Below are positions 13,345 to 60,533 of a stretch of 64,000 nt of DNA, one piece after another (within the stretch, counting starts at the first letter, position 1; each line of letters starts with the position of its first letter). Location of the stretch: positions 188,728,001 to 188,792,000 of the forward strand of contig OX597815.1 in assembly GCA_951406725.2 (NCBI GenBank). Direction: 5' to 3'. This stretch comes from Octopus vulgaris. Taxonomy: Eukaryota. The position numbers were made by a program, and so were the translations under genes. The notes beneath the pieces are model-generated. The model was not told where the DNA came from and searched no databases. It saw only the letters and a list, made by a program, of their open reading frames with translations.

Positions 13345-13506
13345 TGATGTAAATATGCCATTTGAATATGGCTAACCCCTAAGGGTGGATGCTACTGTAG
13401 TTTTTAGCCCCAGGAAGACATCTCCTCCAGCTGGCTATAGACACACTTTCTGTGCCCTATCAGTATTTGCAAAGGAAGCCATCCTTCCCGTCTTCAACTT
13501 ATGATA

Positions 13507-13551
13507 CACACGGACCCGAGTTTCAAGGTATTGACCTATCATCAGCGTGTG
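13507..13551 (-). ncRNA. Type I hammerhead ribozyme motif
   Basis: Mirror copy of 13658-13702. Confidence 0.85.
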
Positions 13552-13657
13552 ACAATCACAGTTGTCGATAGGAAGGAGGTTCTCTTTACAAATACATACT
13601 GGAAAATGTATATGTATTTGTAAAGAGAACCTCCTTCCTATCGACAACTGTGATTGT

Positions 13658-13702
13658 CACACGCTGATGATAGGTCAATACCTTGAAACTCGGGTCCGTG
13701 TG
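13658..13702 (+). ncRNA. Type I hammerhead ribozyme motif
   Basis: cacacg CTGATGA t aggt caat acct t GAAA C tcgg GTC cgtgtg: 6-bp stem I, intact core, GUC cleavage triplet, minimal stem III. Confidence 0.85.
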
Positions 13703-13864
13703 TATCATAAGTTGAAGACGGGAAGGATGGCTTCCTTTGCAAATACTGATAGGGCACAGAAAGTGTGTCTATAGCCAGCTGGAGGAGATGTCTTCCTGGG
13801 GCTAAAAACTACAGTAGCATCCACCCTTAGGGGTTAGCCATATTCAAATGGCATATTTACATCA

Positions 13865-17089: not shown

Positions 17090-17624
17090 GGTGCAGGAGT
17101 GGCTGTGTGGTAAGTAGCTTGCTTACCGACCACATGGTTCCGGGTTCAGTCCCACTGCGTGGCATCTTGGGCAAGTGTCTTCTGCTATAGCCTCGGGCCG
17201 ACCAATGCCTTGTGGGTAGATTTGGTAGACGGAAACTGAAAGAAGCCTGTAATATATATATATATATATATATTAAGGTATGTAGAAAAATACAACATGG
17301 ACAAGAACGTATAACTCTTAGAAGACGATACAATAAACACGGACAGGACATTCGAAACCCTCAGTCTTCAGTCAAGAACCGGATCATCGTAGTAATTTCG
17401 GTGTGTGTGTATGTTTGTGTGTCTGTGTTTGTCCCCCTAGCATTGCTTGACAACTGATGCTGGTGTGTTTATGTCCCCGTCACTTAGCGGTTCGGCAAAA
17501 GAGACCGATAGAATAAGTAGTAGGCTTACAAAGAATAAGTCTTGGGGTCGATTTGCTTGACTAAAGGCGGTGCTCCAGCATGGCTGCAGTCAAATGACTG
17601 AAACAAGTAAAAGAGTAAAAGAGT
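17090..17624 (+). mobile_element. SINE family A with an insert (~17276-17400) in its central microsatellite
   Basis: Family match; insert homologous to 34427-34545. Confidence 0.88.
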
Positions 17625-18320: not shown

Positions 18321-18495
18321 TTTGCTCTATACCAAATAGCGCTCACCACTTCACCTCGTTATGGCTTAACAGCCAACACCATTTGTTTTTAGTGTTTTGT
18401 TCTTACTGTCCTGTTTTTGTTACTACTTTAACCCTCTGCAAAAAATCCCAAATTATATTTAATTTGCTTTGCAGGAAAGATTGTTTTGATCAGCT

Positions 18496-18556
18496 CGTGT
18501 CTTGTCCCTACCTTTGAAACATGGAGTAGATAAAATAGGGGACAACTGATGAAGGG
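18496..18556 (+). ncRNA. Candidate non-circularly permuted hammerhead (family P1)
   Basis: cgtg TC ttgtccc ta ccttt GAAA catg [15 nt] gggacaa CTGATGA aggg. Confidence 0.7.
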
Positions 18557-18835
18557 AAAGTTCTTTATGTTGCATGTCTCGTTTCTCTGTTTTTTTCGTT
18601 GTTAAAAAAAAAAAATTTGTTTTCTGTTTTTGTTTTTTATGTTCTCATTTCTCATTTTGTTCATGTCCTGTACCCAAATACCATATATGCATGTATATAT
18701 ACATATATGTGTAGGCATGTACATGTGTGTGTGTATATATGCAAATATGTATATATTATTTATATTATTATATATATACATATATATACACATATATACA
18801 TACACACACGTGCACACACACACACACACACACGT

Positions 18836-34388: not shown

Positions 34389-34430
<42 letters not shown>

Positions 34431-34949
34431 CAAAATGGGACAAAAATGCAAAACATCCAAAGAAACGATACAAAAAATACAGACGGGTCATTCAAAGCTT
34501 CTAATCTTCAGTCAAGAACAGAATCATCCTTGCAATTTCGGCTGATTAATCTTGAGATTGCTCCGATCTGGCCAGCGTCAACGGAAAACTAAGCATTAGA
34601 TTTCTTGGAAAAAGGATCAAATGTATACGAAACAAGGACAGAAAAACGGATGATGTTACACAAATATAAATACAAAAGACAAAAAATAATACGAATATAA
34701 ATACAAAAAACAATAATATGTGTGTATGTATTTGTGTCTGTGTTTGTCCCCCCCCAACATCGCTTGACAACTGATGTTGGTGTGTTTACGTCCCCGTAAC
34801 TTAGCGGTTCGGCATAAGTGACCGATAAAATAAGTACTAGGCTTACAAAGAAAAAGTCCTGGGGTCGATTTGCTCGACTAAAGGCAGTGCTCCAGCATGG
34901 CCACAGTCAAATGACTGGAACAAGTAAAAGTGTAAAAGTGTAAAAGTGT
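34234..34949 (+). mobile_element. SINE family A with an insert (~34427-34716) in its central microsatellite
   Basis: Head and tail flank a segment homologous to 45813-46060. Confidence 0.88.
34496..34561 (-). ncRNA. Candidate non-circularly permuted hammerhead (family P2)
   Basis: Minus strand gcaa TC tcaaga ttaatc agcc GAAA ttgc [14 nt] tcttga CTGAAGA ttaga agct. Confidence 0.7.
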
Positions 34950-45810: not shown

Positions 45811-45885
45811 CATTAGATTTGATGCTTTTTTCCAAGGAATCTAATGCTCTTAGCTTAGTTTTTCCTTGAGGCTGGCCAGATTGGA

Positions 45886-45950
45886 GCAATGTCAAGATTA
45901 ATCAGCTGAAATGCAAGGATGATCTGGTTCTTGACTGAAGATAAAAGGCT
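45886..45950 (+). ncRNA. Permuted hammerhead family P2, mutated copy
   Basis: gcaa TG tcaaga ttaatc agct GAAA tgc [14 nt] tcttga CTGAAGA taaaa ggct; position 17 is G, predicted inactive. Confidence 0.6.
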
Positions 45951-46054
45951 TCGAACAACCCGTTTTTTTGTATCGTCTATCTGGATGTTTTGTTGTCCCC
46001 TTTTGTATCACCTAGTTGTCCGGATGTTTTGCGATCTTGTCCCATTTTGTATTT

Positions 46055-58853: not shown

Positions 58854-58953
58854 NNNNNNNNNNNNNNNNNNNNNNNNNNNNNNNNNNNNNNNNNNNNNNN
58901 NNNNNNNNNNNNNNNNNNNNNNNNNNNNNNNNNNNNNNNNNNNNNNNNNNNNN
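58854..58953. other. Assembly gap (100 N)
   Basis: Run of N. Confidence 1.
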
Positions 58954-60019
58954 ATGTACATGTAGGACTTCTGCATTGTTTCTGTCTACCAATTTACTGA
59001 CAAAGCCGGATATTGAAATTTTTCATTTATTTCCATCTGTAGATGTTGATTGTTCTTTCATGTTATTATTAAACTTGAATGCTAATACTTCCAAACCTAA
59101 TTTCAAAGTGATAGTTCATTAAGTAACTAATTATCGTTATAGTGATTCAAAGTGGACAAAGACAGTTCCGTACTTAAATGCTTAACAATGATGAAATATC
59201 GGATAAATTAGCTTTGAAATTGTGAAAAACAATCTAAAGCACTCACACACACACACACACACACACGTAAAGACACACTCACACACACATAAAGACAAAC
59301 ACACACACACATAAAGACAAACACACACACACGTAAAGACAAACACACACACATAAAGACAAACATACACATACATCAAAACACATATATACATAATATA
59401 TATATAATTTAATATGAATTGTTAGGATTTAAAATATGAGGAAATTTTTGATTAATTTGATTAATTGAATAATTTGGCATTTTGCATATGTTATTAAATT
59501 GATTGCTTCTAGATGATAAATTTAATACAGTAACATCTGTCAAACCGATTCCTTTAGGAAAAGAAAATGTATTGTTGAGTTCTGAAGTTATAGTTTAGCA
59601 ACAGAAAGGAAATAAAAGTGATTTATTAAAACAAAAACTACTTTGATAGTTTTTCTTGAAGATGGAACAAAGAAGAAAAGACAATTCCAAGGGAAAAATT
59701 GAACCAAATATTAACAACAAAGATATAGTAAAACTTAAACTTGGTATAAGATGCAACATTCAAATGTGTAATTAATGGCATTTGAAATTTCTTAATTAGT
59801 TTCATATAGTTGATCAAAATAATTTTTTGAGTGAAAGACTCGTTAAGAAGCCTGTTTGTGACTACATGGTTTCAGATTTTGTACTATTGTGTAATGCACT
59901 AGACAAAGAAACTCTACAGGAGTATTCTGCATACTGAATCCACATATTACAGGGTCTCACATATGGAAGGTATTTCAACCATGTTTTGAGGTCTGCTACC
60001 ACAACAGCTCCTTTATAGG

Positions 60020-60378
60020 ATCCAGTTAACTCAAGACATCATCAGGAAGAACCACGTTCGGTTTCGGCCCTTAATCCTCTACCGTTTTGACGTGGTGCTC
60101 CCCCCACTTTTGGAGGTGTCTTCAGCTCTGGTGTTGGGTGCGTGTCTTCTTTCTTCTTCTTTCTTCTGTTCCCTGGCCTCTTCGATGTAGCGCCAATGAG
60201 TGTCAGCAGGCGACTGACTGCCTTGTCAAATTTTTTCCCTTTAAATACCTGCTGCTAGGCTCCCGCAGGCAGCCCCAGCAAGTTGTCACGTGACACTGTC
60301 TCAACTTTAATGGTGGTAATACTGGACATTCCATCCCTGTTCTCTGCACTCTTCGATTAGTTTTTCGTACCTCAGTGG
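60020..60378 (-). mobile_element. 3' remnant of an RLE-type non-LTR retrotransposon (HERO/NeSL-like)
   Basis: Minus strand 60375-60300 reads LRYEKLIEECREQGWNVQYYH then, after a frameshift, IKVE; resembles the Y..L...C...GW.....EVG end of RLE domains. Confidence 0.6.
60033..60084 (-). ncRNA. Candidate non-circularly permuted hammerhead (family P3)
   Basis: Minus strand cgg TA gagga tta agggc c GAAA ccg aacgtggt tcttc CTGATGA t gtctt. Confidence 0.75.
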
Positions 60379-60533
60379 ATTAAAAATAACTTTCAGCAAC
60401 TGAGATTATCCAAGCAGCTGGAAGGCAAATCTCCCTCTAATGGTATTTAACTTCTCGGCATTTAAACCGGTCATATCTGGCCCAAATATTCGGCCTATTT
60501 TATGCTGGGACTGGCCACATCTACCCTATAATG

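Follow-up and report, generated by a model that had tools for sequence, protein, structure and literature searches.

Hammerhead ribozymes whose blocks stand in non-circular permutations can cleave, as reported by Eckert et al. 2023 (PMC10085705). That work assumed that CUGAnGA and its stem II strand are separated by no more than 1-2 bases, and it records no SGC form in the genomes of known organisms. An extra base at A9/G10.1 is tolerated according to PMC3705267. In Penelope-like elements, minimal type I hammerheads have been described within the terminal repeat (Cervera and de la Pena 2014, PMC4209133), a location similar to that of the motif considered here; they have a C-G-S order and a continuous core and are proposed to act as dimers, all unlike our motif. 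A base left unpaired at the stem II 5' end is known among them. The non-LTR retrozymes (PMC7229834; 10.64898/2026.07.22.740005) resemble our repeats in being non-coding tandem units with one hammerhead each, and a circular RNA intermediate and a Penelope-like origin have been proposed for them, as they are here. However, their hammerheads are of type I, and the type I descriptors used to find them would not detect the fold reported below. Finally, Naiads were presented by Craig et al. 2021 (PMC8557442) as being without a canonical hammerhead, but entries in its supplement are flagged HHR_core or HHR_half_core.

We analysed a 64-kb stretch of Octopus vulgaris DNA (the window, to which the positions below refer). 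A repeat insertion on its minus strand presents the CUGAnGA, GAAA, and NUH core bases of the hammerhead ribozyme. We consider it quite probable that this insertion is a decayed, non-coding copy of a Penelope-like element carrying a split hammerhead of the SGC class, which likely cut after AUC and would serve to trim and circularise the RNA for reverse transcription in trans. The features of the insertion, and of the other relevant repeats in the window, are as follows.

34418..34718, minus strand: the focal insertion, the 3' end of a family-A unit, about 300 nt, 5'-truncated and non-coding
34611..34623, minus strand: 5' strand of putative helix IVa, whose partner is the tail after A9; mismatches in the focal copy
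34578..34608, minus strand: putative leader hairpin IVb, ending beside position 10.1; 7-nt deletion in the loop region of the focal copy
34573..34577, minus strand: true 5' strand of stem II (10.1-10.5), CGCUG in the focal copy and GGCUG in the family
34564..34572, minus strand: 5' strand of the stem I-II interaction helix (6 pairs, 82.5% paired)
34562..34563, minus strand: GA of the predicted kink-turn that links the interaction helix to stem III (A in 59/59 rows, G in 53/59)
34550..34561, minus strand: S block, comprising stem III GCAA, U16.1, C17, the predicted cut at 34556/34555, and stem I UCAAGA
34532..34544, minus strand: G block, comprising stem II strand CAGCC, GAAA, and stem III strand UUGC
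34518..34531, minus strand: 3-nt bulge, GA of the predicted kink-turn (G and A in 59/59 rows), and 3' strand of the interaction helix
34505..34517, minus strand: C block, comprising stem I UCUUGA and CUGAAGA (C3-A9), after which the chain exits the core
34489..34504, minus strand: tail after A9, read as the 3' strand of helix IVa and not as stem II (n5-AGCU in the sequence-only reading)
45814..46006, plus strand: second family-A copy, 80% identical to the focal copy over 206 nt (45814-46008)
17273..17402, minus strand: copy of subfamily B (copy 3), 76% identical to the focal copy in the alignment at 17401-17256, with a fixed 3' end into (TA)n
18440..18640, plus strand: family D, an unrelated repeat with the same predicted split-core fold, core at 18546-18552
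59960..60140, minus strand: family E, an unrelated repeat with the same predicted split-core fold, core at 60045-60039

The sequence-only reading of this DNA had proposed a permuted hammerhead made of three blocks in the order a-c-b, equivalent to S-G-C, and each block is found on the minus strand where it was placed: a (GCAA-UC-UCAAGA) at 34561-34550, c (AGCC-GAAA-UUGC) at 34543-34532, and b (UCUUGA-CUGAAGA) at 34517-34505. Its stem I of 6 bp and stem III of 5 bp are borne out in the focal copy, and its placement of the cut after AUC, in a non-circularly permuted hammerhead fold, appears right as a prediction. Among all six block orders, only S-G-C was found at this site; a minimal type I reading (CUGAAGA...CGAAU...GUC) was rejected, as no stem I forms after GUC. 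The insertion matches family-A unit positions 543-850 at 87.5% identity, sits in the microsatellite belonging to a SINE-like host repeat, and has (TA)n as its end. It carries lesions in helix IVa and in the interaction helix, the 3' strand of the latter having two, and the 7-nt deletion in the IVb loop region is common to three other copies (L012, L013, and L022). Because position 10.1 is C and G10.1 has been lost, and with it the 10.1-11.1 pair, the focal copy is probably inactive.

For stem II, the earlier reading had paired AGCC with GGCU or GGUU five bases after A9, which would give a continuous SGC core with a 5-nt bulge. We compared 59 distinct copies (23 of family A, 5 of B, and 31 of C) that match an anchor pattern, with duplicates dropped, in a MAFFT alignment made without structure fitting. 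The four base pairs can form in families A and B, and at one of them both bases differ between A/B and C, but the helix is only 73% paired in the alignment and two of its four pairs are broken in about half of the rows, the loss being that of family C. Moreover, the metagenome examples of Naiads do not have such a partner within 0-2 nt of A9, and the GGCU bases pair better in helix IVa, to which they and the n5 segment belong, so that the supposed atypical insertion between A9 and stem II is an error. We therefore regard this fold as very improbable. The reading had itself named the lack of a conserved GGCU/AGCC pairing as grounds for its rejection, and the pairing is indeed not conserved among the copies; this applies to that helix only, and the hammerhead survives with a stranger wiring.

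The real partner of AGCC lies 5' of the S block, on a strand that precedes the cut by 21-22 nt. Stems I, II, and III, with stem II paired in this way, are 97%, 95%, and 95% paired in the 59 copies and show 1, 3, and 4 compensatory pairs, and the four core helices together reach 92% with 9 compensatory pairs as compared with 22-46% in slid controls; since copies of one family are related, these pair counts cannot be treated as independent. Rows of family C that have A at 10.3 always have U at 11.3 (6/0 vs 8/15, p=0.006). The upstream G10.1-C11.1 pair begins stem II in all 16 sequence-distinct examples, which comprise 9 metagenome Naiads and 7 repeat families of the O. vulgaris genome. The 5' strand of stem II is followed directly by a helix whose partner abuts stem I; this is the stem I-II interaction of Eckert et al., and it is seen in 17 structures. 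As the stem II strand comes from upstream, the core chain on these pairings is open between A9 and G10.1, entering at G10.1 and leaving at A9.

Beyond A9, the tail is predicted to form helix IVa, which begins at A9+1 to +3, pairs with a strand far upstream, and abuts hairpin IVb. When an 85-nt leader is considered, IVb (ending at G10.1) and IVa fold together in 13 of the 16 distinct examples, as compared with 2-41% for shuffled tails (energy against shuffled tails, p=2e-4); the three examples in which they do not form are all single old copies. A leader-tail pairing test with a 40-nt leader was not significant (p=0.19), a leader of that length being insufficient; the pairing was resolved with 85 nt. 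Paired cells in IVa amount to 323/336 in family A, 382/403 in C, 79/84 in D, and 145/204 in F (weak), and those in IVb to 399/411 in family A, all scored against each family's own majority fold and thus leaning towards it. The 'n5-GGCU' of the earlier reading is, as the bases pair, part of IVa.

In a kink-turn, two helices are joined by a 3-nt bulge and, after it, the tandem pairs G.A and A.G. At the candidate kink-turn between stem III and the interaction helix, three of the four G/A positions are invariant in 59/59 rows; the pattern is present in families A, C, and F, variant in B, and absent from several others, and L338-L340 have tandem GA without a bulge at this site. The element thus reads, from 5' to 3', IVa, the IVb hairpin, stem II from G10.1, the interaction helix, stem III, NUH, and stem I, followed by stem II, GAAA, stem III, the interaction helix, stem I, CUGAnGA, and IVa again. 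In the model that we propose, IVa and IVb would stack end to end and splint the open A9/G10.1 junction, with five helices meeting at the core, and the kink-turn of the octopus families would bend stem III into the interaction helix. The RNA is predicted to cleave after AUC.

The sequence-only reading had counted three copies in the window, and its two further copies exist, aligning at 80% and 76%. The second family-A copy has G at position 17, U in place of C11.1, and one missing stem III base, and is likely dead. Copy 3 indeed lacks strand a, as claimed, but decay is not the cause; it is a 5'-truncated insertion of the younger subfamily, and it begins some 15 nt past the predicted cut. Scanning all six block orders across the window recovered S-G-C cores at 34511 (minus), 18546 (plus), and 60045 (minus), as well as a canonical type I pair at 13664/13545. 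The S-G-C motif exceeds chance, as 7 cores occur in 464 kb (the window plus 40 random, evenly picked 10-kb stretches) against 0-2 (mean 0.35) per dinucleotide shuffle in 20 shuffles. No hammerhead appears among the 150 matches listed of 251 in an Rfam scan of the window.

Several further observations concern the window. The type I pair (cores 13664, plus, and 13545, minus; stem I of 6 bp and stem III of 7 bp) belongs to a long perfect inverted repeat at 13350-13860, probably an inverted Penelope-like end. At 59950-60400 on the minus strand, the family E motif comes after a broken reading frame, which we take to resemble the C-terminus of HERO/R2-like LINEs. Family E also forms tandem copies of about 262 nt at two other loci (L113 and L115), and from its context the split-core fold may extend beyond Penelope-like elements. 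A run of N at 58900-58953 represents an assembly gap or a withheld stretch.

The host repeat is a non-coding, CT-rich unit of approximately 850 nt (about 840-860 nt) present in thousands of copies. The longest open reading frame in A and B units is 149 aa, and the two units are 70% alike. Family A yielded 4468 first-look candidates in the 2.8-Gb genome, the top 40 of which were scored. Subfamily B has at least 40 matches at 100% and its 3' tag matches exactly at 1165 sites; its copies are intact, and it is young. Family C came to light in a flanking sequence. Families A-C share a 3' end fixed into (TA)n, variable 5' truncation, partial tandems, inverted pairs, and no coding domain, and by this anatomy the host repeat is a non-autonomous Penelope-like element. 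The fixed 3' end and 5' truncation also place the motif on the sense strand. Elsewhere in the genome, families G (D-related; L216:8380-8600) and H (A-related; L517:6750-6880, minus) present split-core motifs with further compensatory changes, and a hammerhead-like core fragment with CUGAUGA, a long stem II, and GAAA lies just 5' of a family-A tandem (L006:1375-1410).

The 5' ends of insertions bear on whether the RNA is cut. For subfamily B, we sampled 70 insertions from the first 100 matches listed of a tag lying 88 nt after the cut, with arrays collapsed. Thirteen of the 5' ends lie beyond +20, 25 at +1 to +20, a single one in the 20 nt before the cut, and 31 further upstream, a few of the latter being alignment breaks and not true ends. 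Expressed as a hazard, 25/57 insertions end at +1 to +20, as compared with 1/32 over the 20 nt preceding the cut (p=2e-5). Family A, for which 73 ends bearing the tag were taken from the first ~70 of 500 matches, replicates this pile-up at 27/63 against 4/36 (p=0.0014); its four ends before the cut lie at 0 to -4 and none falls from -5 to -22. Exactly +1 is the position of 6/25 near-cut ends in B and 2/27 in A. Most near-cut ends are a few bases downstream, and microhomology at the (TA)n junction blurs them.

It could be argued that the motif is a hammerhead-shaped, protein-binding 3' signal that cuts rarely or never, and that the wall of 5' ends marks where reverse transcriptase stalls within the knot. 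Roughly half the insertions do extend past the cut, the end clusters at +13 and +6 could reflect pausing or microhomology, and published SGC ribozymes are slow, at 0.007-0.19 per min in PMC10085705. However, the catalytic bases and the NUH triplet are all kept in the 16 distinct examples, and the ends lie at the scissile bond, whereas a polymerase would meet the 3' edge of the knot first. A wall in the middle of the structure, at the scissile bond, fits a template end made by cleavage better than polymerase stalling, and we judge a non-cutting signal unlikely. As copies begin at the predicted cut, the split-core RNA likely cuts in cells.

We further propose that trimming and circularisation would prepare the cleaved RNA for reverse transcription in trans by an autonomous element. 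Reverse transcription would begin some 130 nt past the cut, always at one site, and the product would integrate into (TA)n. A cut linear RNA would then give short copies beginning at or just after +1, and longer copies, as well as arrays in which identical units follow one another head to tail, would come from a ligated circle. In 17/18 pairs of units from the same array, the difference is 0-1 base, and some units are identical across arrays too. Clusters of A-to-G changes can be a trace of A-to-I editing. One six-unit array (L270; G000:C1:108237000-108244830) carries 7-8 private A-to-G changes that are clustered in the ribozyme, including GAAA, and are identical in all five full units and all six ribozyme copies. 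These identical edited units suggest that a single A-to-I-edited circular RNA was copied round several times, although this is one edited array (n=1) and DNA duplication of one edited copy could also yield identical units.

Alternatively, with the same fold and cut, cleavage may set only the 5' end of a linear tandem transcript, so that arrays would be read-through multimers or DNA duplications formed without a circle. This account differs from the one that we favour in the last step only. It would accommodate the two-unit insertions that begin at +1 (L236/L237), and partial tandems are usual for Penelope-like elements according to PMC8557442, but identical private A-to-G clusters in six ribozyme copies are hard to obtain through independent editing of multimers. 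We consider the linear account rather unlikely, though it retains real weight next to copying from a circular RNA.

The split-core fold is also found in Naiad 3' UTRs, including entries marked HHR_core or HHR_half_core in the supplement of PMC8557442. By eye, 3' ends from three Acropora, two octopus, one ctenophore, and two further entries carry it, the ctenophore entry with a stem I of only 2 bp; one squid entry is a partial fit, and two nematode entries are of type CSG. These readings cover places 1-58 of 62 (CTGATGA) and 1-29 of 43 (CTGAAGA) in the supplement, with names partly taken from file order. A motif taken from the octopus Naiad consensus in the literature matches the genome exactly at 244 sites, and its reversed control at none. 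Family F, which carries this motif, lies about 1.4 kb 3' of a reverse transcriptase remnant on the same strand; relatives of the remnant have an N-terminal GIY-YIG and a C-terminal reverse transcriptase, and family F and the metagenome loci both fall within the Naiad clade as defined by this domain order or by sequence in common with an element that has it. Families A-C share the fold with the Naiads examined and no alignable sequence, and families A and B match Naiad flanks only through nested insertions.

Among marine-metagenome Naiad-like loci (best 80 of 440, of which 66 have at least 150 nt of 3' flank), a strict split-core fold occurs in the sense orientation in 9/66 flanks. The remaining 57 flanks gave no strict match; many of these contigs are short, and two have intact CSG forms. 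The same strict fold occurs 0 times in antisense, 0 times in 100 shuffles, and once in 208 kb of open reading frame and 5' sequence. These numbers bear on the simplest objection, namely that the motif is chance complementarity within a high-copy repeat. In pseudoknot-free folding of four copies, three were indeed no better than shuffles and one was marginal (z +1.0, +0.7, -1.9, and +1.0), but such single-strand energies are uninformative because the fold is a pseudoknot that these programs cannot draw. Given 9 sense matches against none in the antisense and shuffled controls, and recurrence in unrelated sequence families with compensatory changes, chance is effectively refuted and we give it almost no weight.

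Type-CSG hammerheads were found in three Naiad 3' flanks (L368, L388, and L410). In L410, a 23-nt insert of two hairpins stands between A9 and G10.1 (by eye), a closed form of the junction, which suggests that the split form is its circular permutation, opened in helix IVa. Certain Naiad-like proteins of 1000-1300 aa (P0026, P0039, and relatives) carry a C-terminal ubiquitin hydrolase (UCH, PF00443) after the reverse transcriptase.

The sequence-only reading had called for an autonomous partner element. The need for one stands, but our search of the genome for a carrier of the A/B motif did not find it: the Naiad matches listed are partial or broken frames only (57 of 103 candidates; 54 under a stricter first look), with no intact Naiad and no autonomous element with the motif among the matches examined. 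An A-like motif near one Naiad remnant sits inside a SINE-like repeat that precedes the reverse transcriptase, and one near a second remnant lies on the opposite strand; neither is in a 3' UTR, and both were set aside. We also considered a young, intact Penelope-like family encoding an 811-aa reverse transcriptase-then-GIY-YIG protein (L161-L168; 10217 first-look candidates), some copies of which have a frame of about 495 aa upstream. It ends in (TA)n and shares this target, yet it was rejected as mobiliser since it has no similarity to the A/B units; no CUGAnGA occurs in the 3' sequence inspected. No Naiad relative was found in viral contigs, and a short Naiad fragment used as query returned no protein homologue.

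With respect to the described classes, the motif resembles types SGC and CSG, as given in PMC10085705, in its S-G-C order, core bases, short linker between stems I and II, and far-end I-II helix. However, block C of type SGC is uninterrupted, whereas here it is interrupted at A9/G10.1, where two additional helices would brace it. A stem II strand within 1-2 nt of A9 is absent here, and the motif is for this reason not assigned to type SGC. As far as the pairing pattern goes, it would work like a hammerhead and is best filed as a variant that lacks the defining intact block. It also departs from the non-LTR retrozymes, since its order is S-G-C and not the C-G-S of a type I hammerhead in each unit. 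The (TA)n targets, partial tandems, inversions, and occurrence of the fold in 3' UTRs are shared with Naiads as described in PMC8557442, from which families A-C differ in being non-coding. We found no published description of the split-core fold in a search that lay outside most subscription journals and the supplements of Eckert 2023.

The split core breaks the assumption of an uninterruptible CUGAnGA that underlies the count of six hammerhead permutations, and standard descriptors and Rfam consequently miss a very abundant class. The opening at A9/G10.1 would also offer a new attachment point for ribozyme engineering. With about even confidence, we propose a hammerhead class outside the six published permutations, with its strand open at A9/G10.1 and five helices, that would be the missing ribozyme of Naiads from ctenophores to cephalopods, active in vivo and driving the transposition of Penelope-like elements by rolling reverse transcription of a circular RNA. 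The role of ribozymes in Penelope-like elements thereby becomes testable, with the wall of 5' ends and the edited array as genomic evidence for the cut and for a circular template, respectively. If true, this would overturn the view of Naiads as elements spreading without a hammerhead.
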